From: a virus
Lineage: Duplodnaviria; Heunggongvirae; Uroviricota; Caudoviricetes
IMG/VR virus record: IMGVR_UViG_2534681672_000003
Location: 1-56,022 of that record
Length of the DNA: 56,022 nucleotides
Reading direction: 5' to 3' (one strand)
In this document: positions 20,061-46,728 of the stretch, one piece after another
Numbering within the stretch: the first letter of the stretch is position 1
Layout of the letters: every line of letters begins with the position of its first letter
Program-made: the position numbers and the translations under genes
Notes under the pieces: model-generated
What the model saw: the letters and a program-made list of their open reading frames with translations, nothing else
What the model was told of the DNA's origin: nothing
The model's database searches: none

Positions 20061-20086
20061 GCCAGCCAGAGCGGGCCCTAATTTCA

Positions 20087-20470
20087 TCAACCAATCAGCT
20101 TATAGCGACCATCCCGTGCATTGCGGCGTACACGCTCAATCTTGAGGCATAGCGCCGCATCTGGCTTTTTTGGGACAGGTACGCGGCAATATTCAGAAGC
20201 GCGAGGAATATTATTTATCCAGTCGATCACTTCACTTAAATACCAGGCCTTACGCCCTTCCGTAACCTGCACACGCTCCGGGAACTCTCCACTAGCCTCA
20301 AGGTTTAGCAGTGTACGACGACTCAGGGTTGTAATTTCCATCACCTGATTCATATCAACAAGGCGCTCGCTTAAACACATTTTGTCAGCGATAGCTTTTA
20401 ATTCCTCTACAGCTGGATTCGGGTACATCATTTCGGCAATTGGCTTAAGGTCATTGTAATCATTCTGCAT
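20087..20470 (-). CDS. AlpA/Xis-type HTH DNA-binding protein
   Basis: Motif TTLSRRTLLNLEASGEFPERVQVTEGRKAWYLSEVIDWI; AGGGGG RBS; last gene of the capsid operon, ending about 57 bp from cosN. Confidence 0.6.
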   Translation of the reverse strand: MQNDYNDLKPIAEMMYPNPAVEELKAIADKMCLSERLVDMNQVMEITTLSRRTLLNLEASGEFPERVQVTEGRKAWYLSEVIDWINNIPRASEYCRVPVPKKPDAALCLKIERVRRNARDGRYKLIG

Positions 20471-20481
20471 TGTATCCCCCT

Positions 20482-20823
20482 TTACACACGAGCCAGCGGC
20501 TGAACAGAAATACCTGAGCCAACAAACGCTGCAACCTTTACTGACAGTTCTTTAACAGACTCAGGCCAGTTCAGAGCATCAACATTTAAGACACCTGTCT
20601 TATAGACCTGAGCCTGTGTTTTTTTCGCGGTGTCGATTTGTACAGCGGAAACATAAACCGCTTTACCTACGCTCGAACCATCCCATACCACCAGTGCACC
20701 TGTTGCATCTTCCTGCATCAGTGGCGTAAATGCAGGAATTACCCCTTTATTAGCTGAAAATATCCCCAGCGTAGTCACCAGTGCTTCAGTGCCAGCCATG
20801 AGTTCAGTGTAATGAGTAGCCAT
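20482..20823 (-). CDS. head decoration protein, lambda D-like
   Basis: Alignable by eye to helper D (TPLM, WDG, YK-G, WPE, AF-G-IS shared); AGGGGGAG RBS. Confidence 0.7.
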   Translation of the reverse strand: MATHYTELMAGTEALVTTLGIFSANKGVIPAFTPLMQEDATGALVVWDGSSVGKAVYVSAVQIDTAKKTQAQVYKTGVLNVDALNWPESVKELSVKVAAFVGSGISVQPLARV

Positions 20824-20832
20824 TGCTCCCCC

Positions 20833-21873: not shown

Positions 21874-22074
21874 ACGCATCCTCTTTGCATTCATTAAAAA
21901 TAATTGTGGATATATGCTATCACCGATATTTGTCATGCGAACACATGCAACCGAGTGCAATGTTGTATAAAGTTTTGGGGTGACAACTTCAGTGCGGACA
22001 ATTAGTGTTAATATCTTCACTCCCTTTGGTCGGGATTTATGTAGCATGCAGGAAAATTTATTTTTTCCGGCCTT

Positions 22075-22792
22075 TTTGTGCACAGAAAACCCCCAGCTAG
22101 GCTGGGGGTTCCGGAAAGCTTTCAGCTTTGAGCCAGTTATTAAAACCCCTTTTGATTTGTTAAAACACTTTGCGGTCTGGCAACTGCAAGTGTCAAACAA
22201 GAAATCAAAAGGGGGTCCCAATGGGGAACGAAAAGAGCTTAGCGCACACCCGATGGAACTGTAAATATCACATAGTTTTTGCGCCAAAATACCGAAGACA
22301 GGTGTTCTACAGAGAGAAGCGTAGAGCAATAGGCAGTATTTTGAGAAAGCTGTGTGAGTGGAAAAGCGTACGGATTCTGGAAGCTGAATGCTGTGCAGAT
22401 CATATCCATATGCTTGTGGAGATCCCGCCCAAAATGAGCGTATCCGGGTTTATGGGATATCTGAAAGGGAAAAGCAGTCTGATGCTTTACGAGCAGTTTG
22501 GTGATTTGAAATTCAAATACAGGAACAGGGAGTTCTGGTGCAGAGGGTACTACGTCGATACAGTGGGTAAGAACACGGCGAAGATACAGGATTACATAAA
22601 GCACCAGCTTGAAGAGGATAAAATGGGAGAGCAGTTATCGATTCCCTATCCGGGCAGCCCGTTTACGGGCCGTAAGTAACGAAGTTGGATGCAAATGTCA
22701 GATCGTGTGCGCCTGTTAGGGCGCGGCTGGTAAGAGAGCCTTATAGGCGCATTTGAAAAACCTCCGGCTATGCCGGAGGATATTTATTTTAT
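22075..22792 (+). mobile_element. IS200 insertion sequence
   Basis: IS200-type TnpA flanked by terminal hairpins (about 22087-22110 and 22771-22789); boundaries approximate. Confidence 0.8.
22221..22679 (+). CDS. tnpA: IS200 transposase TnpA (Y1/HUH)
   Basis: MGNEKSLAHTRWNCKYHIVFAPKYRRQVFY... matches IS200 TnpA as recalled; trimmed to the ATG at 22221. Confidence 0.92.
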   Translation: MGNEKSLAHTRWNCKYHIVFAPKYRRQVFYREKRRAIGSILRKLCEWKSVRILEAECCADHIHMLVEIPPKMSVSGFMGYLKGKSSLMLYEQFGDLKFKYRNREFWCRGYYVDTVGKNTAKIQDYIKHQLEEDKMGEQLSIPYPGSPFTGRK

Positions 22793-22801
22793 TGGCAATA
22801 T

Positions 22802-23251
22802 TTAAAACGGGATATCATCTCCCCATTGCTCATTATCTCCCACTGGTGGCTGGCTTCCTTGCTGATCTGCCTGTTGTTTTGCTCTGTTCAGTGCGTCAGT
22901 AGCCTGCCCCTGTTGGCCTTTATTGCCGCCCGGTCGCACCGATCGCGCACTGATTACGCTGTCTGCGATAACCTGCCAGCCCTGCCGCGTTTCGCCGTTC
23001 TGTCCAGTCCACTGGCTCATCTGCATGTTACCCGCCACGCTCAGGAGTTCGCCTTTGTGATGCTTTGCCAGCGCGTCGGCTTGTCTGCCAAACGCCAGGA
23101 CAGATAACCACATCGTCGCCTGACCGTCATCCGACTGACTGCAGGGCAGTGATACCGCCATACGCGCCAACGTCATGGGGGTGCCCTTGCTGGTCTGTTT
23201 TGTCTGCGGGTCGTCCACCGACCGCCCGTAAACTGATATTTGCGCCGTCAT
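22802..23251 (-). CDS. SSB-like protein with C-terminal DDIPF tip
   Basis: Ends ...NEQWGDDIPF (SSB acidic-tip motif); glycine/glutamine-rich linker; AT-skewed neighbourhood. Confidence 0.5.
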   Translation of the reverse strand: MTAQISVYGRSVDDPQTKQTSKGTPMTLARMAVSLPCSQSDDGQATMWLSVLAFGRQADALAKHHKGELLSVAGNMQMSQWTGQNGETRQGWQVIADSVISARSVRPGGNKGQQGQATDALNRAKQQADQQGSQPPVGDNEQWGDDIPF

Positions 23252-23493
23252 GCGGCCTGCTCTCCGGACTTAATATTGATTGTTGTCACTTCCTCCGCTT
23301 CAGCAATCTCCCGTTCGGTCAGAGTGGCAAAGTTTGCAGCCGCCGTTGTCATGAATGCGCTAATCAGTTCGGGATGTGCTTTCGCGTATCCTTCCCCGGC
23401 GTTGCGGTCGATGATTTTTATCGACACCCTTAACCAGTGTTCCGTCAAATCAAGGGCGTGCGATTGTGATTTTTTTGTGTGCTTCGCTGTCAT
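23248..23493 (-). CDS. hypothetical protein
   Basis: 81-aa ORF, stop overlapping the SSB-like start. Confidence 0.35.
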   Translation of the reverse strand: MTAKHTKKSQSHALDLTEHWLRVSIKIIDRNAGEGYAKAHPELISAFMTTAAANFATLTEREIAEAEEVTTINIKSGEQAA

Positions 23494-23538
23494 AGGCTTT
23501 ATCTCACAGCAGTAAATTAAAATTTTTGCGTTTTAACC

Positions 23539-23770
23539 CTTCACCTGTTCACCTTTTGATATTTTCTCTTTTAATTCATAATGTTAATGGGTGAACAGTT
23601 TCACAAAAACTATTCACCAACTGTTCACCACTGTTCACCCTTGAAGCTCAATAAACAATCAAAAAGGTGAACAGTGAATAGTTTGGTGAACAGTTCATAA
23701 ATAACTGTTCACCCTATAATATACTGATATAAAAGATATTTATGACAGGGTGAACAGTGGTGAACAGTTA
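23539..23770. repeat. replication-origin iterons, about 9 copies of TGTTCACC / GGTGAACAG in both orientations
   Basis: Octamer recalled as the P4 alpha binding site at ori/crr; lies directly downstream of the primase-helicase gene. Confidence 0.7.
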
Positions 23771-23780
23771 TTCCATAAGT

Positions 23781-25601
23781 TTAATTTTTGCTATCGTCAT
23801 TAGTGACCGATACACATGATGGCATCCAGTCTTCTGATTCCTCCGTCAGGGTCACGTTTGAACGCAAACCGTGCTTCGTTTTCCGTTTCATATACTCCCT
23901 GCCATATTCCGCCATTGCCCCCGGCATATCTTTACCGAAGCGCGTCAGTGTTACAGGTTTACCAAACCCATGTGCCCTCATATAAGCCAGATAGGCATGA
24001 TAGAGATACCTGCGTGGGCTGAATGGCACAATTTCAGCATTACCCACTAACAGGCCATCACACATTACCGATGCCATGAGATAACCGCAGAAGTCCACCA
24101 GCGAATCCCCCTCTCGCTTTATCGCCAGTGCTTCTTCAGATTTCTGCTGCTCATATAACAGGCGTCTGGCTTCGTCCTGATCAGCAAACCTTGTAAGCAG
24201 ATGACGAATCACTACCGCCAGCTCACCTTCTATTTTTTCCGCCAGCATCGAATCGCGTTCGTTCTCCGGTACAACTTCCGAAAAATTGAATATCACCCGA
24301 CGACGTGAGATCCCCCCGCTGCGGTCACTGAATGACATGGCGTTATTGTTAACCGCCAGCACTACTGCCGGAATACGCGTTGAATAGGGGGCTTTGTGTT
24401 TCGGGTCAATTGCCACCTTGTCACCGCCTGTAATGGCCTTAATCCCTGCCCCATCACCAGCGTAGCGGGTCATATCCGGCATGATAATCAGCGAAAAGCC
24501 AACCACTAACGCACGTTCCCTTGCATCTTCCAGCGCCTTCATGCTTGCTGATACTGTATTAGCCTTACCCGCCAGCATGGTGCAAATCTCCGCCATCACA
24601 CTTTTACCACTTCCCCCCGGCCCTGTTACCTCAATGAATAACTGCCAGTCGTACCGGTTCGCCAGCACCATGAATAATGCCGCCAGTACGCGATCTGCCT
24701 TGCGGTCATTCTCAGCCACCGAACGGCGCAACCACTTCCAGAAATTCGGCGCATGTGTTGCCAGCGTTTCCCCCTCTGCTGGTGGGCTGAAAGGTAATTC
24801 ACTGGCAATTAACAACCAGTCGTTTTTGTTATGCTCCCGAAAGTTACCAGTTCTGGTATCAAATACCCCGTTACTGAATCCAATCAGGTTACGGGCTGTA
24901 TTCCCCATTACAGGCAAACTTAACTTCATGGTATCTACCGCCGATTTAATAGCGTTCTGCGAATAGCTGATCTCCGCATCAATGAAAATCTGCGCCATAG
25001 CACGCTGTAACTCTTTATCCTGAACCGGCTCCCATACAACGCCGTTGTAATGATGAACGGTGTCAGAGTCGGCATTGATTGCCAGTTCGCCGCCGTAATG
25101 TGCAAGGAGAACTTCACCGCGCTGGCTGGCCCCCATCTGATTCAACGCCAAAGATGAAGCACGCTCGTCATTTTTGCGCTCAGCCTTCTTCACTGGCAGT
25201 TCAATCACCAGACTTTCCCCATGCTCCGCTTCAGCTTTTAGGCCGACAAGGCGCGGAGTCCAGTCTTCAGGCTCTCGATCAACAAAGCTACGGTAACAAC
25301 GTGCTTCCTTTACGCCTGCAATAGCAAGTAATGTCGCAACCTTCGTCAGACTTTTCTCTGCAATCTTTCCGGCACGATAAACACGCACATAATGACGGCC
25401 TTCATCGATAATTTGCATATCATCCAGGTTTTCCAGTTGTTCCGTACCCAGAATGACTGGTGGTGTATCATCTGCTGCAATATGCTTACCTGCCCATTCA
25501 TTCCATTCTTTTGCATGGCTCCAGGCATCACTGCCAGCAAAAATGATGACTTCCGTCATTTTGTCGCGCGGTTGGTATTTTAAGTTCGGAGCACGTTTCA
25601 T
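23781..25601 (-). CDS. replication initiation primase-helicase (P4 alpha-like, P-loop NTPase)
   Basis: Walker A VTGPGGSGKS; 606 aa; GGAGG RBS; adjacent to the iteron origin. Confidence 0.65.
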   Translation of the reverse strand: MKRAPNLKYQPRDKMTEVIIFAGSDAWSHAKEWNEWAGKHIAADDTPPVILGTEQLENLDDMQIIDEGRHYVRVYRAGKIAEKSLTKVATLLAIAGVKEARCYRSFVDREPEDWTPRLVGLKAEAEHGESLVIELPVKKAERKNDERASSLALNQMGASQRGEVLLAHYGGELAINADSDTVHHYNGVVWEPVQDKELQRAMAQIFIDAEISYSQNAIKSAVDTMKLSLPVMGNTARNLIGFSNGVFDTRTGNFREHNKNDWLLIASELPFSPPAEGETLATHAPNFWKWLRRSVAENDRKADRVLAALFMVLANRYDWQLFIEVTGPGGSGKSVMAEICTMLAGKANTVSASMKALEDARERALVVGFSLIIMPDMTRYAGDGAGIKAITGGDKVAIDPKHKAPYSTRIPAVVLAVNNNAMSFSDRSGGISRRRVIFNFSEVVPENERDSMLAEKIEGELAVVIRHLLTRFADQDEARRLLYEQQKSEEALAIKREGDSLVDFCGYLMASVMCDGLLVGNAEIVPFSPRRYLYHAYLAYMRAHGFGKPVTLTRFGKDMPGAMAEYGREYMKRKTKHGLRSNVTLTEESEDWMPSCVSVTNDDSKN

Positions 25602-25885
25602 TTGTTACCTCCGGCAACTAACATTGCCCGAATTTTACGGATATAGCCTGCGGCACGCCTCTGATTATCTGTCTTGCAATTTTTTACCAGAATGAAATCT
25701 CTTTCGAACTGCTGACGCGGCATAACACATTCAAAATCATAACCATCACGCAAATAAGAGACACGACGATCATCAACCGAAATAATCTTTACCCGATAGC
25801 CATAGCTGTCTTTGAAAATATCCCCAAGGCTGATTTTTGAATGAGTTTGACCGCTGGCAATAAAGCCAGAAAATTTATTTTTCAT
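25598..25885 (-). CDS. hypothetical protein (replication operon)
   Basis: 95-aa ORF with ATGA overlap onto the primase start. Confidence 0.4.
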   Translation of the reverse strand: MKNKFSGFIASGQTHSKISLGDIFKDSYGYRVKIISVDDRRVSYLRDGYDFECVMPRQQFERDFILVKNCKTDNQRRAAGYIRKIRAMLVAGGNK

Positions 25886-25888
25886 TTT

Positions 25889-26113
25889 TTATTCTCCGGT
25901 ATAGCTCTGGTCGTGTATTTTTATAGCTTCATCCAGCTCTTTGATGACAGGATCAAGTAACGTAATTAACGCTCCAGCTAAATTAGCATCCCGTTCATCG
26001 TGTTCCGCATTTGTTGTCCCATCAAGCCAGGTTGATAAGATTTCTCGCATATTTTTGCCACAAACGAGCGCGTTTTCAGCATGTGTCAGCACTTTAAAAT
26101 AAAGATCATTCAT
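25889..26113 (-). CDS. hypothetical protein
   Basis: 74-aa ORF in the same operon. Confidence 0.35.
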   Translation of the reverse strand: MNDLYFKVLTHAENALVCGKNMREILSTWLDGTTNAEHDERDANLAGALITLLDPVIKELDEAIKIHDQSYTGE

Positions 26114-26471
26114 GGCACACCTCCTGACGAATACGGGCGGCGAATATCATCACGTAGCCAGTTGGGAATTGCTGGCGGGCTTCCTGTTCGCTGGCGGCCT
26201 CGATGTGTATTACGCGTGGTTGTGCGGTGCTCAGGGCGATAAAACGCCAGATGAAATTGTTTTCGCATTTCTGAATAAACAGCGTGTTTTCTTCACGCCC
26301 TTTCCAGAAAGCCGCAGTATAGCCCATCTCCTTAACCATCTTGCGGGCATCAACCAGCGTGTCAGCGGCAACATGTACCGTAGTTGCTCCATCTGCCATG
26401 CGGTCGTGGTGTAGTGCCAGAAAGGTGTATATAAATTTAGGGTGAGTTTGGGTATGCTGTGTTCCAGCCAT
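26106..26471 (-). CDS. hypothetical protein, first gene of the leftward operon
   Basis: 121 aa from the ATG after a GAGG RBS; the longer ORF-track version runs antisense through the neighbouring gene and was trimmed. Confidence 0.45.
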   Translation of the reverse strand: MAGTQHTQTHPKFIYTFLALHHDRMADGATTVHVAADTLVDARKMVKEMGYTAAFWKGREENTLFIQKCENNFIWRFIALSTAQPRVIHIEAASEQEARQQFPTGYVMIFAARIRQEVCHE

Positions 26472-26554
26472 AATCGTTACCTCGTTTAACGGTTTGGTTA
26501 GAAGCCCGGTTAGTGTTCGCGCACTGCCGGGTTTCGTCGTTTTTATGAATCGAT

Positions 26555-26670
26555 CATTGTGAGATACATAGCGACCATGATGTGAGATATACATTATAAT
26601 GTGGTGATATACATTGCAAGTGTTTTTATATCTCACTTTTGTGTATAGTGATATACACATAACAAATTGG
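26555..26670. promoter_or_regulatory. divergent promoter/operator region with repeated GTGAGATA(T)ACAT and GTGATATACA motifs
   Basis: At least five direct and inverted copies between the divergent operons. Confidence 0.6.
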
Positions 26671-26679
26671 TGATTAACT

Positions 26680-26982
26680 ATGTCTGTATACAAAAATGCA
26701 AAATCGCAAATGACAACGATCAGGGTTCCCCACGATGTTATGGAGGGCATGGAATCCGTAAAACTGGACGGCGAAAGCAACGCCGGATTCATAGTAACCG
26801 CCATGCGCGGTGAGATCGCCCGCCGCCAGGCAGAAGGAAGCGGAGAAAATCCCCTCGTGTCTTCACTGGATGCCTTAGCTAAGGTCGAACAAATCGGCAT
26901 CAAGGCAGCGGAGGAAATCGGGCAACTCGTAGCCGTCGCTCGTGAAGAACTCCAGCGGCGTAAAGCCAAAGAATCTGAATAA
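26680..26982 (+). CDS. putative ribbon-helix-helix (CopG/Arc-like) regulator
   Basis: TTIRVPHDVMEGMESVKL...NAGFIVTAMRGEI fits a strand-helix-helix pattern; sits beside the operator repeats. Confidence 0.4.
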   Translation: MSVYKNAKSQMTTIRVPHDVMEGMESVKLDGESNAGFIVTAMRGEIARRQAEGSGENPLVSSLDALAKVEQIGIKAAEEIGQLVAVAREELQRRKAKESE

Positions 26983-27332
26983 TTACTATCAGCGCCGTGA
27001 TGTGAGTAACTACGGCGCATTGCTATGTAAATACTGGCAATAAACAGAAAAGGTAGTTCTACTCCGAATAATTTTATCTGACACTACTCCTGAACTAACA
27101 TGCGCTTATCTTACAGGATATAAATATAGATCCATAAAATCACGATTAAATAAAGCCGCTCCAAACATAAACCACACCCAACGCTTAACAAGATAGCAAC
27201 AAACAGATAAATAACTTGCAGAAATATTTATCGCAAGGATTATCATTATTAATTACAAATCACTTTACCAAGTCATTCCCCTCTCTTATCATAAAGAGAA
27301 AGTAATAAATAAGTTAAGGGAGTTAGAATACT

Positions 27333-27869
27333 ATGAATCTAAAAAAAATAGCCACAAACATAAAAAACAAGATAATAGAAACATTCAATAAACTTATATT
27401 AGAGGCATCTAAAACCCCCACACAAGATGAAATTAAAATACTTGAGAGAAGAAGTAAAAAGTTTAATTACTCCTTTTTCTCATACGCAGTCACAGGAGCC
27501 ATAATGGTTTTTTGCTCTCAACCATTAATAAAATACGCAAACCCAATGCTTATTTTATTGAGTGGTCTGTTACTGTCTATCATCATTATCCTTCTCAGAA
27601 TGATTTATATTTCACAAGCGAATGCATCATGGACAACCAAAAAACGTTCACATGTACTAGTTCATTTTCTTTCTGCATGTTTCATAGCGTCAACATTGAC
27701 GTTGTTATATCAGGCTTACGATAATAACATCACACACAAATTGTACTGTAAAAATATACAACAACTTATTGAAAAAAGGATAGAAACAGAAAAAAATATC
27801 AGCATATTCAGTGGGATGCAATGCACCCCGGCATATGATTACTCTTTATTTGGATTTAATCTCTTATAA
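27333..27869 (+). CDS. AT-rich membrane protein (cargo, unknown function)
   Basis: 178 aa, hydrophobic segments, very low GC, preceded by about 300 bp of AT-rich DNA. Confidence 0.5.
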   Translation: MNLKKIATNIKNKIIETFNKLILEASKTPTQDEIKILERRSKKFNYSFFSYAVTGAIMVFCSQPLIKYANPMLILLSGLLLSIIIILLRMIYISQANASWTTKKRSHVLVHFLSACFIASTLTLLYQAYDNNITHKLYCKNIQQLIEKRIETEKNISIFSGMQCTPAYDYSLFGFNLL

Positions 27870-27938
27870 AGAATGTTATTACTGATTTGAGTGCAAATTC
27901 TCAAATCAGTAATTCATAATATTTTATTCTGAGATAAT

Positions 27939-28166
27939 TTAAACTACCCACTCACCTCGAATCCATGCCTGCACTTCTGAAAGACGATATGCAACAGCAG
28001 TGGAGCCAATCTTGATCCGCTTAGGAAATTTCCCTTCCTTCTCCAGCTTCCAGCGTGTGCTGTTCGCAAGAGTGGTTAGCTCCCGACATTCTTTCTCACG
28101 GATCATACGATCGATGTTAGGAATGTACTCCAAACCCTTTTTATCAACAATCGCCATTTTTTTCAT
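27939..28166 (-). CDS. alpA: AlpA-family transcriptional regulator/excisionase
   Basis: 75 aa with AlpA-type HTH (LTTLANSTRWKLEKEGKFPKRIKIG); directly downstream of int. Confidence 0.75.
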   Translation of the reverse strand: MKKMAIVDKKGLEYIPNIDRMIREKECRELTTLANSTRWKLEKEGKFPKRIKIGSTAVAYRLSEVQAWIRGEWVV

Positions 28167-28167
28167 G

Positions 28168-29403
28168 TTAACCAGCCTTTTGTTTGAGGATTATCACTTT
28201 TGAATCAGCACCTGCGATGCTATTGAGATATGTAGTCCAGAGTTCCAGAGCATCCAGTTTTTTAGCCATAAACTTACTCCGGTTGTAAACACCTGCCACG
28301 CCAGGTAGCGCATGGCCTAACAGTTGTTCTACTACATAAAATTCAACACCGAGATCACTTAGATGAGTAGATAGCGTTCTTCTAAGGTCGTGTAGTGACC
28401 ATTGTTTTTCATGGCCCAAACGTTTACCGATTTTCCCCCCAATCTTGCTTACGCTTTCTCTAATTCGCAGACTTCCCAGCACATAACCAGTATGTTTTGT
28501 CTCTTCGTGAACATCCGTTACCCACTGTCGTAGAATTTCAGGTACTGGTCTGACGATTTCAACACCAGTTTTTGAGTGATCTTTTGGTACCGTCCAAACC
28601 CAACTTTCGAGATCCCATTCGCTCCATTCAGATAATCGGGCTTCACTCATTCGACATCCAAATACTGTACAAAGCACAAACATTTTTCGCGTGTATTCAG
28701 ACATTAGTTTTAAATCAGGCTCGACAAAAATTGCCTTCCAGAGCTGGCCCAGTTCGGCTTCATCCAGAACCCGATCCCGCTTACCTGCAATCTGCCCCAC
28801 ATCACTCATGCGCAAATCCTTTAAAGCATCACATGTCGCGTACTGGCGTACCCGACAAAAACGAAGAGCTAATTTAGTGTCAGAAAAAACATACGCCGCC
28901 ATAACTGGTGCATTACGTTTAATTCGGTCAAAACAGTCCAGCCATTCATATAGGTGAGTGTCATTTACAGGCAAATGACCGATATAGGGAAAGATATGCT
29001 TTCGAAATCTGCCAAGCGTTACAGCATGAGTTTTACGACGCACCTTACAGTAATTTTCATACCAGTAATTTAGTGCATCCTCCACTGTGACCGGCTTTAA
29101 GCGTTCTTCAGCCTGAATCTTAATCTGGATACGCGGATCACGTTTGTCAGCCAACCAACCACGGCACTCGTCGCGCTTTTCCCTTGCCTGTTTGAGTGAC
29201 ATATCAGGATATTTACCCAACGTTAGCCAGACCGGAGCAGCCCGGCCACCTGCTAACCTGTAGAAGAAAACAAAGCTCACAGCCCCCTTGGTACTCACAC
29301 GAATAGAAAGCCCCTTTCCATCAGCAATGGTGATCTGCTTTTCTCTGGGTTTCCCCAGATATCCTTTAAGCGCTTTGTCGCTCAGTTTGTTCTCGCCAGC
29401 CAT
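28168..29403 (-). CDS. int: tyrosine integrase, P4/CP4-57 family with N-terminal arm-binding domain
   Basis: N-terminus LSDKALKGYLGKPREKQITIADGKGLSIRVSTKG; C-terminal HDLRRT...LLGH...Y catalytic motifs; trimmed to the ATG at 29403. Confidence 0.85.
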   Translation of the reverse strand: MAGENKLSDKALKGYLGKPREKQITIADGKGLSIRVSTKGAVSFVFFYRLAGGRAAPVWLTLGKYPDMSLKQAREKRDECRGWLADKRDPRIQIKIQAEERLKPVTVEDALNYWYENYCKVRRKTHAVTLGRFRKHIFPYIGHLPVNDTHLYEWLDCFDRIKRNAPVMAAYVFSDTKLALRFCRVRQYATCDALKDLRMSDVGQIAGKRDRVLDEAELGQLWKAIFVEPDLKLMSEYTRKMFVLCTVFGCRMSEARLSEWSEWDLESWVWTVPKDHSKTGVEIVRPVPEILRQWVTDVHEETKHTGYVLGSLRIRESVSKIGGKIGKRLGHEKQWSLHDLRRTLSTHLSDLGVEFYVVEQLLGHALPGVAGVYNRSKFMAKKLDALELWTTYLNSIAGADSKVIILKQKAG

Positions 29404-29418
29404 TTTTAGCCCCAAAAA

Positions 29419-29438
29419 GCAATACAAGCTGCAATACA
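29419..29438. promoter_or_regulatory. candidate integrase arm-type site GCAATACAA-GCT-GCAATACA (right arm)
   Basis: Matches the left-arm motif at 18221-18240. Confidence 0.5.
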
Positions 29439-29566
29439 GAGATGATTGCAACACACAGATAACGAGGAAAATTCAGTGAAAGCGCCAGATAAACTTATTC
29501 TTTATTATCAAAAGATTAAGTGTAAAAACCAGCAACTACACGAAAGCCTCAGAAAGCCATGCTAAG

Positions 29567-29576
29567 TGCTTCGGCT
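29567..29576. repeat. right copy of 10-bp direct repeat TGCTTCGGCT
   Basis: Identical to 18134-18143. Confidence 0.75.
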
Positions 29577-29811
29577 TGACATATCCCGGCGTAAATTCAG
29601 AGGTGGAGCCGCCACGGGAACGGATAACCTCACCGGAAACAATCGGCGAAACGTACAGCGCCATGTTTACAAGTCCCGGAATTTGTGAGAGATAGACTTT
29701 CTCCGTAGTGAAGGGATAGCTCTCACGGAAAAAGAGACGCAGAAACAGCGGATCAAACTTAAATTTCTGCTCATTTGCCGCCAGCAGCTGGGCGGTTGTG
29801 TACATCGACAT
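29567..29811 (-). pseudogene. E: major capsid protein E, 5' fragment (MSMYTTAQLL...GYVKPKH)
   Basis: Lambda E N-terminus; frame leaves E sequence right after KPKH at the junction. Confidence 0.9.
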
Positions 29812-35308: not shown

Positions 35309-35828
35309 TCAGCAACCCCGGTATCAGTTCATCCAGCGCGGCTGCTTTGTTCATGGCTTTGATGATATCCCGTTTCAGGAAATCAACATGTCGGTTTTCC
35401 AGTTCCGGAAAACGCCGCTGCACCGACAGGGGGATCCCGTCGAGAATACTGGCAATTTCACCTGCGATCCGCGACAACACGAAAGTACAGAATGCGGTTT
35501 CCACCACTTCAGCGGAGTCTCTGGCATTCTTCAGTTCCTGTGCGTCGGCCTGCGCACGCGTAAGTCGATGGCGTTCGTACTCAATAGTCCCTGGCTGGAG
35601 ATCTGCCTCGCTGGACTGCCGCAGTTCTTCAACCTCCCGGCGCAGCTTTTCGTTCTCAATTTCAGCATCCCTTTCGGCATACCATTTTATAACGGCGGCA
35701 GAGTCATAAAGCACCTCATTACCCTTGCCACCGCCTCGCAGAACGGGCATTCCCTGTTCCTGCCAGTTCTGAATGGTACGGATACTCGCACCGAAAATGT
35801 CAGCCAGCTGCTTTTTGTTGACTTCCAT
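35283..35828 (-). CDS. nu1: terminase small subunit Nu1
   Basis: 181 aa, MEVNKKQLADIFGASIRTIQNWQEQGMPVLRGG... matches lambda Nu1. Confidence 0.96.
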
Positions 35829-35837
35829 TGTTCATTC

Positions 35838-36030
35838 CACGGCCAAAAACAGAGAAAGGAAACGACAAAGGCCCAAAAGTTCGTTTTCAGCACCTGTCGT
35901 TTCCTTTCTTTTCAGGGGGTATTTTAAATAAAAACATTAAGTTACGACGAAGAAGAACGGAAACGCCTTAAACCGGAAAATTTTCATAAATAGCGAAAAC
36001 CCGCGAGGTCGCCGCCCCGTAACCTGTCGG
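35838..36030. other. prophage cos site (cosB R sites plus cosN; 12-nt cohesive end at 36006-36017)
   Basis: Plus strand AGGTCGCCGCCC is the reverse complement of lambda GGGCGGCGACCT; flanks match the lambda genome ends as recalled. Confidence 0.9.
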
Positions 36031-36496
36031 ATCGCCGGAAAGGACCCGTTGGCCGTTCTGGTCTACTTCGTAATGGGATTTAATAGCTGAACGACAAAAG
36101 TCTTGCGACCACAGTCACACAGACCTGAATACACGTCCTGTTTCTTCCACCCCCGCACAGGACTGGCGAGCATGAGGGACACCCCCGCGAACCATAAACG
36201 CGGTAAAAACCCGGTGTGCATCGTTTTTGATTATTCCCGCACACTCACGCAGAAGGAATTCCCCGTCGGGCTACGGTCATGGTTAATGCGGGAATACGGC
36301 GACGATACAGCGCAGCTAAAAGGGTAATGGACAGATAGAGCGGTTTATTTCATTCCACAGGATTCTGAGTGCCCCCCCCCTCCTCCAATAGGCTGAGCAT
36401 CCACCTATATAGTTTTAATTTTCATCAATCCATTTAACTATCGTTTAATTGTTGTCACATAGGATTCTGCCGTTTTTAACAATGCAGGATAATAAG

Positions 36497-36790
36497 ATGA
36501 AAAAAATGTTGTTTTCTGCCGCTCTGGCAATGCTTATTACAGGATGTGCTCAACAGACGTTTACTGTTGGAAACAAACCGACAGCAGTAACACCAAAGGA
36601 AACCATCACCCATCATTTCTTCGTTTCGGGAATTGGACAGGAGAAAACTGTTGATGCAGCCAAAATTTGTGGCGGCGCAGAAAATGTTGTTAAAACAGAA
36701 ACCCAGCAAACATTCGTAAATGGATTTCTCGGTTTTATTACTTTAGGCATTTATACTCCGCTGGAAGCGCGTGTGTATTGCTCACAATAA
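36497..36790 (+). CDS. bor: Bor lipoprotein (serum-resistance moron)
   Basis: MKKMLFSAALAMLITGCAQQTFTV... matches lambda Bor; lipobox LITGC. Confidence 0.92.
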   Translation: MKKMLFSAALAMLITGCAQQTFTVGNKPTAVTPKETITHHFFVSGIGQEKTVDAAKICGGAENVVKTETQQTFVNGFLGFITLGIYTPLEARVYCSQ

Positions 36791-36821
36791 TTGCATGAGT
36801 TGCCCATCGATATGGGCAGCT

Positions 36822-37283
36822 CTATCTGCACTGCTCATTAATATACTTCTGGGTTCCTTCCAGTTGTTTTTGCATAGTGATCAGCCTCTCTCTGAGGGTG
36901 AAATAATCCCGTTCAGCGGTGTCTGCCAGTCGGGGGGAGGCTGCATTATCCACGCCGGAGGCGGTGGTGGCTTCACGCACTGACTGACAGACTGCTTTGA
37001 TGTGCAACCGACGACGACCAGCGGCAACATCATCACGCAGAGCATCATTTTCAGCTTTCGCATTAGCTAACTCCTTCGTGTATTTTTCATCCAGTGCAGC
37101 AACATCACGCTGGCGCATCTGCATGTCAGTAATTGCCGCGTTCGCCAGCTTCAGTTCTCTGGCATTTTTGTCGCGCTGGGCTTTGTAGGTAATGGCGTTA
37201 TCACGGTAATGATTAACAGCCCATGACAGGCAGACGATGATGCAGATAACCAGAGCGGAGATAATCGCGGTTACTCTGTTCAT
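36822..37283 (-). CDS. Rz: i-spanin Rz
   Basis: 153 aa from the ATG at 37283, lambda Rz-like. Confidence 0.92.
36881..37063 (-). CDS. Rz1: o-spanin Rz1 (embedded in Rz, +1 frame)
   Basis: 60 aa with lipobox VVGCTS and proline-rich tract, identical in character to lambda Rz1. Confidence 0.9.
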
Positions 37284-37777
37284 TGCTGACCCCACAAACA
37301 GATTTCACGCTCAATCTCACGACGAGTCATGAGACCTTTCCATTGCTTACCGCCAGCATATGTCCAGCGACGTAGCTGATCACATGCGCCTTTGATATCG
37401 CCCTGGTTTATTTTGCGAAGAAGCGTCGATGTTCTGAAATTGCCAGCGCCCACGTTGTAAACGAACGAGTAAAGAGCGCCGCGCGTTGTTTCCGGTATAT
37501 CAACTTTTATGTACGGGTTAATTTGTCTGGCGACCGTGGCAAGGTCTTTATTCAGGAGGGCTTTGCATTCTGCTTTGGTATACGTTTTACCGAGCATGAT
37601 GTCTTTTCCTGTATGCCCGTGACATACAGTCCATACACCAACAATATCTTTGTATGGTATGTAGCTGACACCCTCCAGACCATCGTTACCACTTGAGCCA
37701 GTGATTAACACTGATGCTATAGCAATTGCTCCGCCACCAATAGCAGCAGCAACGGCTTTTCGTAATGATGGAGGCAT
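37280..37777 (-). CDS. R: SAR endolysin (phage 21 R-type lysozyme)
   Basis: N-terminal signal-anchor-release segment [20 protein letters not shown] and lysozyme core, matching R21 as recalled, not lambda transglycosylase R. Confidence 0.88.
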
Positions 37778-37992
37778 TATTCACCTCTCGCAGCCTTGCG
37801 CTTATCTTCTTTAATCTTGAAATAAAGGTTTGTCAGGTACGTCAGCAAGCCAAATACCAAGCTACCCAGCACACCTATTGCTGCCCACTGTGAGGGCGTG
37901 ACTTTATCGAGCAGCTGTAAAAACCAGTAGCCAGCACTGCCTGCGGAGGTGCCGTAGGCAATGCCCGTTGTTAACTTATCCATGGATTTCAT
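37777..37992 (-). CDS. S: pinholin S (phage 21 S21-type, dual-start MKSM)
   Basis: 71 aa with two TM segments; MKSMDK dual-start motif as in S2171/S2168. Confidence 0.88.
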
Positions 37993-38180
37993 AGCCTCAC
38001 CTCCGCAAATAACGGATGGTGTACACGGTTCGGAACGAAGAGGAAAGGTATAGAAGTTACATTAGCGTAAGGCTTGAACATCTATTCAAAAAGAAAAACG
38101 CCAGCGATTATTCTGGCGTAGCTGAAAGCATCATACAATTATTAAATACGAAAATTACAAAATCATTAAAACGCATCACG

Positions 38181-38921
38181 TTACATCATGTCTTTTTCTA
38201 AAAAAAGTCTTGATGAATATTGATGGGGAGGAACACCAAAATATCTTCTGAAAACACTTACAAAATATGACGTGTTTTCATAACCGCATATCTCAGCAAC
38301 TTTTCCAACAGAATATAAATTGTAGCTTAATAACCTTTCCGCCATCACCATTCGCTCTTCAAGAATTAACTTACTAAATGATAAGCCTTCGTGCTTTAAT
38401 TTTCTTTTTAACAGACTTTCACTCAGATACAGTCTTGAAGATATATCACAAAGTCTCCATGCTGCAGATATATCCGTGTGAATAATAGCCTTAACTTTAC
38501 TTCCTAAACTATTAAGACATCCAAATAAAAAACTTTGCACTATTTTCTCTGAAGATAAGATAGCAAGACATGCAAGTGATATTTGATTTCTAACAAAATC
38601 CACAGTTCTGCCATCACAATTCAAGCATGCAATCAAGTTCTTTAACAATGAAAAATCTTCACATTCCACCATCAAGTATGCCGGATAAAACCTTCTTACA
38701 GAAAAAGGTGAGAGTGTGTTGCTTTTAAAGAAATCATTAACTGTTTTCTCTTCAACATCTACGATCATTACATGATCTATATTTGATGAAAAAAAATCTT
38801 TTAAATTGTAATCAATGAGAACAGCACTTCCTTTTTTAAACAAAATATCTTCTTTACCAATTCGGACATCAAACGAGTTCAACACCAAAATGATAGAACA
38901 TATGTATGGCATATTATCCAC
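38181..38921 (-). CDS. AraC-family transcriptional regulator (AT-rich moron between Q and S)
   Basis: C-terminal AraC HTH (VGKVAEICGYENTSYFVSVFRRYFGVPPHQY); low GC. Confidence 0.8.
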   Translation of the reverse strand: MDNMPYICSIILVLNSFDVRIGKEDILFKKGSAVLIDYNLKDFFSSNIDHVMIVDVEEKTVNDFFKSNTLSPFSVRRFYPAYLMVECEDFSLLKNLIACLNCDGRTVDFVRNQISLACLAILSSEKIVQSFLFGCLNSLGSKVKAIIHTDISAAWRLCDISSRLYLSESLLKRKLKHEGLSFSKLILEERMVMAERLLSYNLYSVGKVAEICGYENTSYFVSVFRRYFGVPPHQYSSRLFLEKDMM

Positions 38922-39263
38922 CTGATATCATTGGGGTTACACCAGGTAAGTATAGGTGGAAAATCAATATTCGCCAGTTCAACAATAAGGAAAATCTCAT
39001 TGCATCACAAGTATAAAATTATGTATTTAACTCACAAAGACAAATTATTAAACCAATCTGTTATATTATATATAGCTGCGTGGAATCATAATATTATATA
39101 TTTTGACTGGCATGTTTACCAACTTTAAGTTGCATCTCAATGGTTTCTTCAGCGTAAACAGAGTTTTTATACAAACTGACACTCTGGGTATCATAGTGTA
39201 GTTTTTACGATTGTAAATATCTTGCATGCAGGAACTCATCCTTTTGGATGATATCGCATACAA

Positions 39264-40223
39264 TTAATTTACCATCAGTCTTAGAGCCAGTTCGTCCGGA
39301 TAGGGAGCGAAGTAATTCTGTGTAAGCAAGTAATCATTAGGATACTCACCCAGATAATGCTTCAGCAGAGTCAACGGCGCAAGAAGAGGTAATGTGCCAG
39401 AACGATAGTTAAGTATAACCTCGCTCAACTCTTTACGCTGGCGTGTACTTAAGTAGTTACTAAAATACCCCTGTATATGCATCAGCACATTCGTGTGATT
39501 TTTACGTGATGCAGGTTTTCTGAGAATCGCCATCAGCTTATCACGATACACCTCAAAGTATGATTCAAGGTCCGCCCACTCGTGTATTGCAGCCACAAAT
39601 GGTCCCATATCTTTATAGCCTGCCTGACTATGCGCCAACAACTGAAGCTTATAACGACTATGAAAAGCTAATAACTCTCTTCTTGATAATTTCTCCTTGT
39701 AAAGGTGATTGAGCTCATGCAAAGCAAAAACTCTTTCAACAAAATTCTCACGAAGCACTGGATCATGTAATCGCCCATCCTCTTCAACCGGTAGCCAGGA
39801 AAACTTTTCCATCAAAGTGCTCGTAAATAGTCCCACTCCATCTTTACGACCTCGATTACCATTTTCATCATAGACACGCACGCGCTCCATGCCACAGCTG
39901 GGAGATTTAGCACAAACCACAAACCCCGATACATCCTTTAATTTGTCCATATAAGAACGACTAAACTCTGTCATTCTCTCTGTCACATCCTCATTCTGGT
40001 CGTGGCTGAAACACATCCGTATATTTCCTTGCGTCGAGCGCACAAGACGTAGAGCAGGACGCGGAACTGGCAGCCCTATAGCCATTTCCGGACATACTGG
40101 TCTGAATGTTACCCATTCCACTAATTTGTCCATTAAAAAGTCAGCTCTTTTGTGACCACCATCAAAACGAACAGCAGAGCCGGCCAAACAACCGCTGATT
40201 CCAATCACAGGTTTTTTTATCAT
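39264..40223 (-). CDS. DUF523/DUF1722-type protein (moron)
   Basis: N-terminal VIGISGCLAGSAVRFDGGHK resembles the DUF523 signature as recalled. Confidence 0.5.
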   Translation of the reverse strand: MIKKPVIGISGCLAGSAVRFDGGHKRADFLMDKLVEWVTFRPVCPEMAIGLPVPRPALRLVRSTQGNIRMCFSHDQNEDVTERMTEFSRSYMDKLKDVSGFVVCAKSPSCGMERVRVYDENGNRGRKDGVGLFTSTLMEKFSWLPVEEDGRLHDPVLRENFVERVFALHELNHLYKEKLSRRELLAFHSRYKLQLLAHSQAGYKDMGPFVAAIHEWADLESYFEVYRDKLMAILRKPASRKNHTNVLMHIQGYFSNYLSTRQRKELSEVILNYRSGTLPLLAPLTLLKHYLGEYPNDYLLTQNYFAPYPDELALRLMVN

Positions 40224-40415
40224 ATTCTCCCCCTTGACTAATTCATTAACACATAAACTGTGTAGTGCACGGAATAAATTGCCTTTCTGGCGTCATCACT
40301 GACAATTTTTCTGTTATAGACTATTCCTAATATAGTATGAAAGTTCTTTAAGTGATCGGTCGTAATCATCTATCTTTCATACTTACTCTCAACTATCAAA
40401 AGTACAGGATTTATT

Positions 40416-40940
40416 ATGAAGTTATGGCCTGTGTTGACTGGCATTGCACTCTCTTTCACTCTTATAGCATGTAAGGCCCCGACACCACCTAAAGGTGTGC
40501 AGCCGATTACAAATTTTGACGCCAACCGCTACCTCGGAAAATGGTATGAAATAGCTCGCCTCGAGAACCGGTTCGAACGTGGTCTGGAACAGGTCAGCGC
40601 TACCTATGGAAAACGGAACGACGGAGGGATTCGTGTACTTAACCGTGGATACGATCCAACGAAAAATAAATGGAGCGAGAGCGAAGGTAAAGCATACTTT
40701 ACTGGAGATACTAAAACTGCAGCGTTGAAGGTTTCGTTTTTTGGCCCCTTCTATGGTGGCTATAATGTAATCAAACTGGATGATGAGTATAAGTATGCTC
40801 TTGTCAGTGGTCCGAACAGAGAATACCTATGGATTCTGGCAAGGACCCCAACTATTCCAGATAAAGTAAAAGCAGACTATGTGCGAACCGCTCAAAAGTT
40901 GGGATTCAATGTCAATGAATTATTATGGGTTAAACAATAA
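40416..40940 (+). CDS. blc: outer-membrane lipocalin Blc-like lipoprotein
   Basis: Lipobox LIAC and lipocalin motif NFDANRYLGKWYEIARL. Confidence 0.85.
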   Translation: MKLWPVLTGIALSFTLIACKAPTPPKGVQPITNFDANRYLGKWYEIARLENRFERGLEQVSATYGKRNDGGIRVLNRGYDPTKNKWSESEGKAYFTGDTKTAALKVSFFGPFYGGYNVIKLDDEYKYALVSGPNREYLWILARTPTIPDKVKADYVRTAQKLGFNVNELLWVKQ

Positions 40941-41095
40941 AATCCCTACCCGAAATAATACTTATTAGAAAAAAACCAGCCTTTGGGGAGGCTGGCTAAA
41001 TCAGGAAACAAGCTGTTATATGATAATAACTACGTTGCGATTCCAACATTTAAAATGTTAGACTAATGAGAATCAGACAGCAACTTTTCCTTTAA

Positions 41096-41488
41096 TTATT
41101 TCGAACAATCAGCATCCATCTCCAATCGGAGATCCAACACCATCAGCATACCCTCCACTACGCCCTCAGCTTTCTGGAGCATCCTGCCAACCCAACAATC
41201 AGATCGCCCATGCTTACGTGCAAGCGCCATAAAAGTCATGCCGCCGACATAATAGTCCACCAATAAATCATGCAAATCGCTGTTGTTCTTTTTCAGACGG
41301 GCCATGCACCCGCAAATGATCATCGCGTCATCGTCACAACATTGCGGGCGAGATTTTACTTTTGAAGGAATTAATCCCTTAAAACCGGCGGCAATGGACG
41401 ACCAGGTCACATCTTCATGATTATTAGCCGCCCACGCTCCCCAACGCTCAAGAACCATCTGAATATCACGCATCAACTTACTCCACAA
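41096..41488 (-). CDS. late-gene antiterminator Q (DLP12 QuuD-like)
   Basis: [26 protein letters not shown]... matches QuuD as recalled. Confidence 0.85.
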
Positions 41489-41558
41489 AACTCAGACCAG
41501 AACGCCAATTACAAGCAAAAATCAACAAAACAGTATTAGTTGATTGTTATCTCTGACT

Positions 41559-41699
41559 TCATACTCCTGCTCCTGTCAGTGTTTTGGCGTAATTCTTCAG
41601 TATTCGGTAATCGGTCAAAACAGAGCCGGGGAAACGATATAAGCGCAGACGCCCCCAGCGGTGGCGAAGAAGTTCTGCCATATTAAACTCAAACATCAT
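41559..41699 (-). CDS. ylcG: YlcG-like small protein
   Basis: 46-aa [28 protein letters not shown]... found by hand below the ORF-track cutoff; start overlaps the rusA stop. Confidence 0.7.
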
Positions 41700-42058
41700 T
41701 CATTCCCCATTTCGGTGATGGTCAGTTCCAGCCTCCCACCTTTGGTAACAGGCATCTTCACAACGCGGTAATCAACGACCTGAGCATCATCCAGCCAGAA
41801 ACCTGCTTTAGTGAGTGCGTCAAAAGCGGCTTTTTGCAGATTATCCAGGTCACGGCTACGGCAATCCGGCATGTGGCACTCAATGCGGATTTTCACAGGC
41901 ATAGCCAGGCCGATATCCAGCATTGCGTTTTTAATGATTCGGGCGACGTTATCGCGGTATGCCTGCCCCTCTGCACTGACGTGCGTGCGCCCGCGATTAT
42001 GGCGGTAATAGCGATTATTGCTCGGAGGCCAGGGTAATGTGATACTGTAGGTATTCAC
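41696..42058 (-). CDS. rusA: Holliday-junction resolvase RusA
   Basis: 120 aa, RusA-like. Confidence 0.9.
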
Positions 42059-42345
42059 GCCTTAATAACCCCCTCTTTCAGCCAGATAACCTGTGTTCTC
42101 GCCATACCTTCCAGCGCGCATTCTTTTGCATATGCAGCATCGACAAAATGTGTGCGGCGGTCGATTTCGTCGTGGCAGGCAGAACATGCAATGGTGGCAA
42201 TCAGGTCTGGCGGTTTGATACCGGTACCGCACAATCCAGCCAGCCGGATATGTGCCAGTACAGACGTTTCAGAATTGCCATTACATACGCCAGGGATTCT
42301 TACCTGGCATTCCCGACCACGCGCTGCTTTTCTCAAATCAGCCAT
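42055..42345 (-). CDS. ybcO: YbcO-like (DUF1364) putative nuclease
   Basis: [23 protein letters not shown]... cysteine-rich; trimmed to the internal ATG. Confidence 0.8.
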
Positions 42346-43155: not shown

Positions 43156-43938
43156 TTAGGCGCAATACAAAGGATCATTAGCAGCTCTAATACCGCCCTG
43201 AATCGCAAGCCCTGTATGGCAATTTGACATTGAGCATGATTGCCATCTGTGCAAGCGACCTCCATTAATCGAAACTTCCAGCAGATCTTTATCTCCTTTC
43301 ATCCTGACCCCTTCATACAACATATCAAGACGCTCAACAATCAATCCTGTTGGAGGTTCCATTTTTAGAACGAGGGCAAACTCTCCTGGCCCACGTCGTA
43401 TTGTTATACGCGGGCCGGTACACTCCACATCCCAATTGTCTGATTTAGCTTTCCATTCATTTTCATCTATCAGTAAAGTCTCCTTACCAATAGAATTACA
43501 GAAAATTCCTGATAAAAGCATCGGTCCATGTGGTATGGGTGAAGGTTTCACAGAAAGAATGGGTTGTTCATTGACTACAATCAAATTTTGACAGTTATGA
43601 AACGTCACTCCTGCAAATTTTACTGTTATAGGCTCATTATGAAAATCAAACATTTCATTTGCAAAACCAGCCTGTAAGCACTTGGGATTTCTGTCAGCTA
43701 TTTCCACTGTCTGTGCTGAAAGTCTACCACGAGCTCTTTTTTGATTGCATTGGGAGCAAAGAAGTGTCATTCCATTCGGATCATGTACTTTGGCATCAAC
43801 GAAGTCAGGTTTAAAATGCTCATAATCATAAAATCCAAATCCACAAATTACACAGCCAAAGCCGCACCTTTGCCTTATCTGACGTTTTATTGTCTCAGGT
43901 ATTCTTCTTGAGAGCCCGTGTTTATTAATATTGTCCAT
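43156..43938 (-). CDS. HNH-nuclease-domain protein with uncharacterised C-terminal domain (AT-rich moron)
   Basis: N-terminal CGFGCVICG...YDYEHF...LLCSQCNQ HNH/zinc-finger motif; low GC; nin-region island. Confidence 0.6.
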   Translation of the reverse strand: MDNINKHGLSRRIPETIKRQIRQRCGFGCVICGFGFYDYEHFKPDFVDAKVHDPNGMTLLCSQCNQKRARGRLSAQTVEIADRNPKCLQAGFANEMFDFHNEPITVKFAGVTFHNCQNLIVVNEQPILSVKPSPIPHGPMLLSGIFCNSIGKETLLIDENEWKAKSDNWDVECTGPRITIRRGPGEFALVLKMEPPTGLIVERLDMLYEGVRMKGDKDLLEVSINGGRLHRWQSCSMSNCHTGLAIQGGIRAANDPLYCA

Positions 43939-46328: not shown

Positions 46329-46661
46329 TTAATGTGGTGTGCTTCGTGACAATAAATTAATAACCAACACACCGGCACAAATCAACATCATGCCTATAAT
46401 GGCTGGCAGGTCCAGCCGTTGGCCGAAAAGTCCCCATGACAGTAAGCTAATCAGGACAATACCGACTCCTGACCAGATAGCATAAGCAATCCCTGTAGGA
46501 ATATAAGCCAGCGTCTGAGCTAATAACCAGAATGATGCACAATAACAAATAATTGTACCAACAGATGGCCATAACCGTGTAAAACCTTCTGAAAACTTCA
46601 TTAAGGTTGTACCAATGACCTCTGCAAGTATTGCACCACCAAGATAAATATAAGGGTTCAT
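46329..46661 (-). CDS. emrE: small multidrug resistance efflux protein EmrE
   Basis: MNPYIYLGGAILAEVIGTTLMKFSEGF... matches EmrE; trimmed to the internal ATG. Confidence 0.92.
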   Translation of the reverse strand: MNPYIYLGGAILAEVIGTTLMKFSEGFTRLWPSVGTIICYCASFWLLAQTLAYIPTGIAYAIWSGVGIVLISLLSWGLFGQRLDLPAIIGMMLICAGVLVINLLSRSTPH

Positions 46662-46728
46662 AGCATATTCTTTCCTGTTCAAACTGGAGAGAATTGTACT
46701 ACAGTTTGAACTCAACTCACCTGTTTCA

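Follow-up and report, generated by a model that had tools for sequence, protein, structure and literature searches.

A cargo island between the genes for antiterminator Q and holin S was analysed in IMG/VR virus record IMGVR_UViG_2534681672_000003 (Caudoviricetes), a stretch of 56,022 nucleotides (nt) which at its full length is called the window here. The window is a DLP12-family lambdoid prophage with its late genes on the minus strand, and the island holds three genes: blc, which encodes an outer-membrane lipocalin, rudS, which encodes a predicted tRNA 4-thiouridine (s4U) desulfidase, and a gene for an AraC-family regulator. The reading that we consider probable is that the Q-to-S slot of an intact-looking prophage holds a composite moron island, built from two independent acquisitions and, as far as its architecture tells, transcribed late. 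The first acquisition would have brought in a divergent blc-rudS pair, and the second a single-gene AraC module, of a kind that recurs as a passenger right downstream of phage Q genes. The island is real, well delimited and ordinary in kind, and it is largely already described. blc was listed earlier as a frequent lambda moron, found in more than 50% of infant-gut lambda phages (PMC6969025), the RudS of Escherichia phage 1H12 (RudS_vir) has been characterised, and prophage AraC regulators of the same clade are known. What is new is the connection drawn between these facts, the figures on how widespread rudS is in E. coli, a light locus as the probable source of blc-rudS, and the recurrence of the AraC clade directly downstream of Q.

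The limits of the island were drawn by comparison with the DLP12 prophage of E. coli K-12. The late genes of the window follow the order rusA, ylcG, Q, cargo island, holin S (essD-like), endolysin, Rz/Rz1, bor/iss, nohD/terminase and portal, and the Q protein gave a distant match to the Q21 structures 6p18/6jnx. Homology to K-12 DLP12 (about 95%) stops at position 41114, 18 nt ahead of the Q stop codon, and restarts at 38003, 11 nt ahead of the S start codon. The cargo module is therefore 38004-41113 (3.1 kb), the whole Q-S interval included. In K-12 DLP12 the same slot is filled by an IS5-disrupted nmpC. The genes for the 319-aa TudS-DUF1722 protein and the 243-aa AraC-family regulator lie on the minus strand, sense to late transcription; blc lies on the plus strand and is therefore antisense to it. 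Their GC content (AraC gene, 31.8%; 319-aa gene, 43.6%; blc, 44.2%) deviates from that of the window (49.1%). Together with nmpC at the same place in K-12 DLP12, the sharp junctions and the terminators described below, this marks the block as a moron, whose own promoters are only predicted.

A preliminary description of this DNA, made from its letters, had proposed such a cargo block in the Q-to-S slot, with an AT-rich AraC regulator. This was borne out, the AraC gene reads in the late-gene direction, and the three genes at that place are real open reading frames (ORFs) with significant family assignments. In treating them as one island the description was right about a discrete module, while the separate origin of blc-rudS and of the AraC gene was missed. 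No tRNA genes, which Stx phages carry at the Q-S slot, were found in the window, and an Rfam search of 35800-42200 returned sub-threshold chance matches only. PADLOC gave no match for any of the three cargo proteins, and an anti-phage defence function of the island was rejected on that result.

The 319-aa protein was found to be a RudS. It combines the two domains of this family, PF04463 (residues 7-149) and PF08349 (residues 192-309), both at E~1e-40. PF04463, the former DUF523, is now called 2-thiouracil desulfurase in Pfam. The domains had been named correctly in the preliminary description, which did not arrive at a tRNA s4U desulfidase. The protein is 93.4% identical to RudS_vir (1H12 gp66, H3V29_gp66), with 21 substitutions, and the genome of phage 1H12 (NC_049947) has the identical Q-blc-rudS-araC-S layout. 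The three [4Fe-4S] cluster cysteines, Cys12, Cys44 and Cys110, are conserved with RudS_vir and RudS_ST. Moreover, the C44-P-E46 motif and Arg55 align with TudS structure 6z92, and Ser107 and Ser109 stand ahead of Cys110 in the way that Ser111 and Ser113 stand ahead of Cys114 in RudS_KT. Glu46, Arg55, Ser107 and Ser109 occupy positions equivalent to the catalytic residues of RudS_KT. By sequence, then, the 319-aa protein is RudS, and the activity of the window copy is predicted from its orthologue in 1H12.

In tRNA, s4U at position 8 is a near-UV (ultraviolet) chromophore; once it is cross-linked to C13 the tRNA can no longer be charged, and a growth delay through guanosine tetraphosphate (ppGpp) follows. 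In the work of Jamontas et al. six TudS-DUF1722 proteins were studied, RudS_vir among them, and overexpression of the six genes lowered tRNA s4U 4.7- to 26-fold. Activity required the three cluster-binding cysteines and catalytic Glu, Arg and Ser residues, and RudS_KT shortened the UVA-induced growth delay (PMC11417400). The same paper reports that RudS genes are often located in light-responsive operons, that rudS of Salmonella is under a MerR-family regulator and, as of 2024, that E. coli lacks RudS (PMC11417400). The absence of RudS in E. coli holds for K-12; about 20% of complete E. coli genomes carry a prophage copy. The E. coli B lineage (NEBExpress, BL21(RP)) was found to keep Q, the post-Q segment, blc and a rudS of which IS3 has left the first 49 codons; in NEBExpress the remnant lies in a Qin-like prophage (NZ_CP053599.1, 2845761-2848350). 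The strain in which RudS was assayed therefore has a rudS remnant.

The lipocalin reaches 316 bits against a cut-off of 267 for the NCBIfam Blc subfamily, and its lipobox LIAC, with Cys19 in the context ...FTLIAC19KAP, is a lipoprotein signal. The Blc-like outer-membrane lipoprotein of the preliminary description was thus confirmed, although its plus-strand orientation, antisense to the late genes, had gone unstated. Prophage Blc has the accession WP_000780581.1, the same as in the 100%-identical locus of SCU-102. This protein was detected by proteomics in a lysogen and rose 2- to 3-fold on meropenem (PMC13459554), so that blc, at least, is expressed. Its identity is 59% to K-12 Blc and 79% to a Buttiauxella lipocalin whose gene adjoins rudS.

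Chromosomal relatives indicate where the blc-rudS pair came from. In a scan of one genome per species, the nearest chromosomal RudS proteins were those of Buttiauxella, Scandinavium, Pseudescherichia and Kosakonia (68-75% identity). In Buttiauxella, blc and rudS (75% at the protein level) are divergent, with a MerR/MlrA-type regulator gene between them, and BluR-like and BLUF-EAL blue-light genes adjoin the pair. Nucleotide similarity between phage and Buttiauxella is limited to the blc and rudS coding regions; the phage intergenic region has none to its Buttiauxella counterpart, where the MerR/MlrA-type gene stands. The two genes were probably captured together, as a unit, from an enterobacterial light/UVA-stress locus, with loss of the MerR-type regulator. 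The AraC gene was considered as the ancestral neighbour of rudS and rejected, the neighbour being of MerR/MlrA type in Buttiauxella and a MerR-family protein regulating rudS in Salmonella. The AraC-rudS pairing is therefore phage-specific.

The AraC gene has a different history. Its longest ORF spans 38181-38921, and translation likely starts at the ATG at 38912, which is also the RefSeq start and comes with an AGGTGG ribosome-binding site. The product was matched by HTH_18 (E=1e-14, 54.9 bits against a cut-off of 33.6) and by HTH_AraC (44.1 bits against 26.6), giving the double helix-turn-helix (HTH) of the family. Its best NCBIfam match is YdeO (NF007407), over the full length, with 126.8 bits against an equivalog cut-off of 348. 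Because this score is far under the cut-off, the protein is a homologue of YdeO and not its orthologue. It is 82% identical to 1H12 gp67, which represents a second allele class, 54% to Sakai ECs_0287 (gapless over 235 aa) and 39% to PsrA (ECs_1087). Identity falls to 31-34% with YdeO, GadW and AppY, in full-length homology, to 29% over 220 aa with GadX, and to 22% with the DLP12 regulator YbcM. With this identity, over part of the protein, identification as YbcM was rejected. ECs_0287 is a 247-aa regulator at the end of Sakai prophage Sp1, and from this position and the location of PatE in OI-8 it is taken here as the orthologue of PatE (Z0321). By domain, identity to this orthologue is 68% in the DNA-binding half and 40% in the N-terminal half. 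The identities to ECs_0287 and PsrA exceed the 29-34% found for chromosomal YdeO, GadW and GadX, and they place the protein in the prophage-borne PatE/PsrA/PsrB group. In Sakai Sp4 (1176715-1179668), psrA is annotated with 195 aa, but its ORF continues upstream as far as MVVVCSVI..., a start in keeping with the N-terminus of the family; the RefSeq start of psrA is probably too short.

Further relatives revealed that the gene travels by itself. Relative P0015 (56% identical) stands alone between a PF06323-type Q and holin S, and relative P0013 (64%) directly follows a Q of the PF03589 type and is itself followed by S after about 100 nt. The Q genes just ahead of this recurrent group of relatives thus belong to three Pfam families. 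The AraC modules are homologous to each other from about 38931, some 15 nt ahead of the start codon of the AraC gene, through the downstream terminator and on into S. These relatives, together with PsrA downstream of Q in Sp4, also support the interpretation of the slot in the preliminary description. Judged by such comparisons the AraC gene is a separate, recurrent single-gene module, and its GC content of 32%, against 44% for blc and rudS, argues that it was acquired separately from them.

Features of the Q-to-S region of the window (strand "." denotes an intergenic region)
Feature	Positions	Strand	Remarks
holin S gene (essD-like), first lysis gene	37777..37992	-	PF04971, E=2e-35
intrinsic terminator between AraC gene and holin S	38088..38119	-	7-bp stem and T run
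AraC/XylS-family regulator, YdeO/GadW/PatE/PsrA group, 243 aa	38181..38912	-	HTH_18, HTH_AraC; phrog_1450
AT-rich region upstream of AraC gene	38913..39263	-	351 bp, 32% GC; two best sigma-70-like matches of the region
rudS, predicted TudS-DUF1722 tRNA 4-thiouridine desulfidase	39264..40223	-	PF04463 and PF08349; 319 aa
divergent blc-rudS intergenic region	40224..40415	.	33% GC; 94% conserved with 1H12
blc-like outer-membrane lipocalin lipoprotein	40416..40940	+	Lipocalin_2, E=7e-44; NCBIfam Blc subfamily
intrinsic terminator (tR'-like) facing transcripts from Q	40965..40997	-	9-bp stem and T run; conserved in 1H12
post-Q leader with candidate late promoter pR'	41050..41124	-	TGGAGA-18-AATAAT 41124-41095; TTGCTG-17-TAACAT 41083-41055
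antiterminator Q gene	41096..41473	-	PF06530, E=2.5e-51; 125 aa from RefSeq start; ORF reaches 41488

Transcription of rudS and the AraC gene from a late promoter is plausible and fits this architecture. The late promoter would lie just after Q and be followed by a terminator, through which Q-modified polymerase would read. The polymerase would then run antisense across blc and sense through rudS and the AraC gene, passing a second terminator into S. In an uninduced lysogen the two terminators would keep both cargo and lysis genes insulated, leaving the cargo to rely on its own promoters, Blc being a lysogenic-conversion lipoprotein made from one of these. The post-Q segment is conserved in 1H12 and was largely intact in 1096 of 5426 genomes. 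The first hairpin (40997-40965), about 100 nt after Q, folds with -14.9 kcal/mol (z -4.5), and none of 200 shuffled sequences folds as well. The second (38119-38088), about 100 nt before S and identical in 1H12, folds with -11.3 kcal/mol (z -2.2). At locus L106 a hairpin and T run were found at the place homologous to this pre-S terminator, with stem and loop differing in sequence. Ahead of the AraC gene, the sigma-70-like matches TTTACA-16-TATGAT (39217-39190) and TTGGTA-18-TATAAT (39122-39093), each 10/12, suggest a promoter of its own, which is probably H-NS-silenced.

The Q gene itself bears on this arrangement. Its 3' half occurs as two discrete alleles, about 80% identical, each tied to one downstream module (blc-rudS-araC or nmpC), and the allele of the window is always joined to a 173-bp post-Q segment and the downstream cargo. 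Compared with K-12 quuD (window 41114-41330), the 5' part is about 95% and the 3' half about 80% identical, which looks like a recombination junction inside Q; perhaps Q co-varies with its target site.

An unlikely alternative, though the strongest of those considered, leaves the cargo outside the late operon. The Q-dependent promoter would then lie just upstream of S, rudS, the AraC gene and blc would be expressed from their own promoters or by early rightward read-through, and the island would be purely a lysogenic-conversion block. Such a layout agrees with a regulatory reporter fragment of the K-12 DLP12 lysis operon, numbered -121 to +650, which responds to Q and RpoE (PMC7918800). It would also account for the terminators that precede S by about 100 nt in the window and in K-12, which are not homologous to each other, for the location of the two best promoter-like matches ahead of the AraC gene, and for the production of Blc in uninduced or stressed cultures. 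However, the pre-S hairpin follows the AraC stop codon after only about 60 nt, and a promoter in this gap would start some 10 nt before the hairpin, with no room for a Q-loading pause site. At locus L105, which has no clear terminator at this place, S follows the AraC gene after about 100 nt, and the late promoter there must therefore be upstream of the AraC gene. Moreover, linkage of Q to its target site would predict the co-variation seen between the Q 3'-half allele and the segment right after Q.

Several points weigh against the composite, late-transcribed island. The hexamers of the candidate pR' are weak (7-9/12), and the region shows no excess of promoters or terminators over shuffled expectation. 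K-12 DLP12 has no conserved counterpart of the late-promoter segment, and the two Q-S intervals share no similarity beyond 10-12-mers; for this reason the position of the promoter stays inferred. The -121 to +650 fragment is compatible with a promoter upstream of essD, after the nmpC cargo, its position relative to nmpC being unmapped in that study (PMC7918800). The reduction of s4U by RudS_vir is given as part of an overall range, without an individual value, in the sections of the RudS paper used here (PMC11417400). An identity of 54% to PatE, with 40% in the N-terminal domain, is insufficient to establish shared targets. Finally, a satellite (described below) splits the major capsid gene of the prophage, so that a benefit to phage production is impossible in the window copy unless the satellite excises.

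As for what the island does, RudS, as a [4Fe-4S] enzyme, would convert s4U at tRNA position 8 back to uridine, and with s4U8 removed translation should continue under UV light. The lysogen would benefit from this, and phage late-protein synthesis after UV induction may benefit as well if RudS is made from lytic transcripts. In a bolder version, which we regard as speculative and rather improbable, the prophage uses RudS as a tRNA eraser within its lytic programme. Transcribed together with late or lytic genes, RudS would strip s4U8 after UV/SOS induction, so that cross-linking caused by sunlight, uncharged tRNA and ppGpp do not choke late synthesis, and the PatE-like AraC protein would separately reprogram host stress regulons. 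If true, it would be the first example of a phage that directs tRNA de-modification to a defined benefit of its own.

The targets of the AraC protein can be approached through its relatives. PatE and PsrB activate gadE and hdeAB, and GadE mediates the repression of type III secretion by PsrA and PsrB (PMC10877973). According to the preliminary description, an AraC regulator expressed from the late promoter could rewire host genes on induction, which is conceivable; its characterised relatives PatE, PsrA and PsrB, however, act on gadE and hdeA in uninduced lysogens (PMC10877973). By analogy, the AraC protein most likely activates H-NS-silenced AT-rich host promoters, and gadE/hdeAB of the acid-fitness island are the first candidates. 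A less likely explanation still than a cargo outside the late operon is that the protein acts locally, on rudS, blc, the lysis genes or other parts of the island or phage, as a replacement for the lost MerR-type light regulator and not as a regulator of host acid-resistance genes. The absence of the ancestral MerR/MlrA-type regulator from the phage copy fits this proposal, and so does the AraC gene adjoining rudS in 72 of 80 viral contigs. It is difficult to reconcile with relatives that occur alone between Q and S, in the company of neither rudS nor blc, with the separate acquisition implied by GC content, and with the action of the closest characterised relatives on host promoters.

Prevalence was determined in 5426 complete E. 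coli genomes, in which rudS, the AraC gene and a 3.9-kb stretch were counted at a coverage of at least 80%. Full-length rudS was present in 1064 genomes, the AraC gene in 993 and the whole 3.9-kb stretch in 979. A megablast search with the AraC gene separated 579 genomes at an identity of at least 99% from 432 at 80-90%, the two-allele split seen between the window and 1H12. The module is also present in 12 sequenced phages. The AraC protein was used to recover 80 IMG/VR contigs, of which 72 show the order Q+ blc- rudS+ araC+ S+; the exceptions are contig ends or IS3/IS5 events. Two short contigs (L020 and L022) binned as 'Candidatus Nanosynbacter sp.' metagenome-assembled genome (MAG) D148_maxbin.008 bear Q-blc-rudS and rudS-araC-S at 93-100% identity. 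They are almost certainly mis-binned E. coli prophage DNA within a Saccharibacteria MAG.

Between the window and 1H12 alleles, dN/dS was lowest for blc (0.06), followed by rudS (0.11) and the AraC gene (0.27), values which place all three genes under constraint. That the island is a neutral or decaying hitch-hiker, kept by linkage to a successful prophage, is suggested by copies with IS3 or IS5 insertions or deletions and by the truncated remnant of the E. coli B lineage, but this purifying selection between two diverged alleles, the number of genomes with full-length rudS and the presence of the island in inducible, plaque-forming phages make it very improbable.

Other parts of the prophage contribute further cargo. 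It bears bor, annotated as iss (increased serum survival; 36449-36790, plus strand), as well as emrE and ybcK as in DLP12 (46329-46715 region), and therefore has several conversion genes beyond the island. A 260-aa ORF (43156-43938, minus strand) between ybcN/ylcH and a P22AR-like gene fills the place of ybcL-ybcM in K-12 DLP12; it contains several CxxC motifs and has no Pfam or PADLOC match. Within the prophage major capsid gene, a satellite of about 11.4 kb (about 18200-29600) is integrated. It encodes a tyrosine integrase (28168-29454), an Icd-like protein, a D5-type primase (23781-25601), a single-stranded DNA-binding protein, IS200C, a major capsid protein of its own (20833-22329), a head-decoration protein and a small terminase with an internal stop (Nu1-like, 19290-19763), the genes with coordinates all being on the minus strand. 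In the matching SCU-102 annotation the prophage major capsid gene appears as two pseudogene fragments. The satellite resembles a capsid-forming satellite of the phage-inducible chromosomal island (PICI) type, and it probably disables head production by the prophage.

These findings leave current concepts unchanged and add members and context to known kinds. Natural E. coli isolates may differ by prophage content in tRNA s4U, UVA growth delay and behaviour under UV disinfection. The AraC protein is an abundant relative of the acid-resistance and type III secretion regulators of enterohaemorrhagic E. coli (EHEC), and its recurrence downstream of Q offers a simple, testable case of prophages plugging into host regulons.

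Among known systems, the closest counterpart of the rudS gene is that of RudS_vir in 1H12. The two proteins share the length of 319 aa, the TudS-DUF1722 fusion and the three cluster cysteines, and the two genes the place between blc and the AraC gene; they are different alleles, RudS_vir being the assayed copy and the window copy known from sequence. Chromosomal E. coli Blc is, like prophage Blc, a lipoprotein lipocalin, yet the K-12 protein is merely 59% identical. With PatE, PsrA and PsrB of EHEC, the AraC protein shares size, subfamily, the N-terminal CS(V/I)I motif, the C-terminal double HTH, a prophage location and AT-richness. PsrA is encoded downstream of Q in Sakai Sp4, as is the AraC protein here, whereas PatE is encoded at a prophage end, outside the Q-S slot. 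The host range also differs, being mainly commensal and extra-intestinal E. coli for the AraC gene and EHEC for the other three. AppY (encoded by DLP12), YdeO, GadW and GadX of K-12 are acid-resistance regulators of the AraC family; the AraC protein falls under every equivalog cut-off, and its locus within the prophage is a different one. As cargo, the island shares its slot and identical flanks with nmpC of DLP12, which is antisense to late transcription, as blc is here. It shares the slot as well with stx of 933W-type phages, which is sense, as are rudS and the AraC gene. In contrast to both, the island encodes neither a toxin nor a porin, and its dependence on Q is putative.

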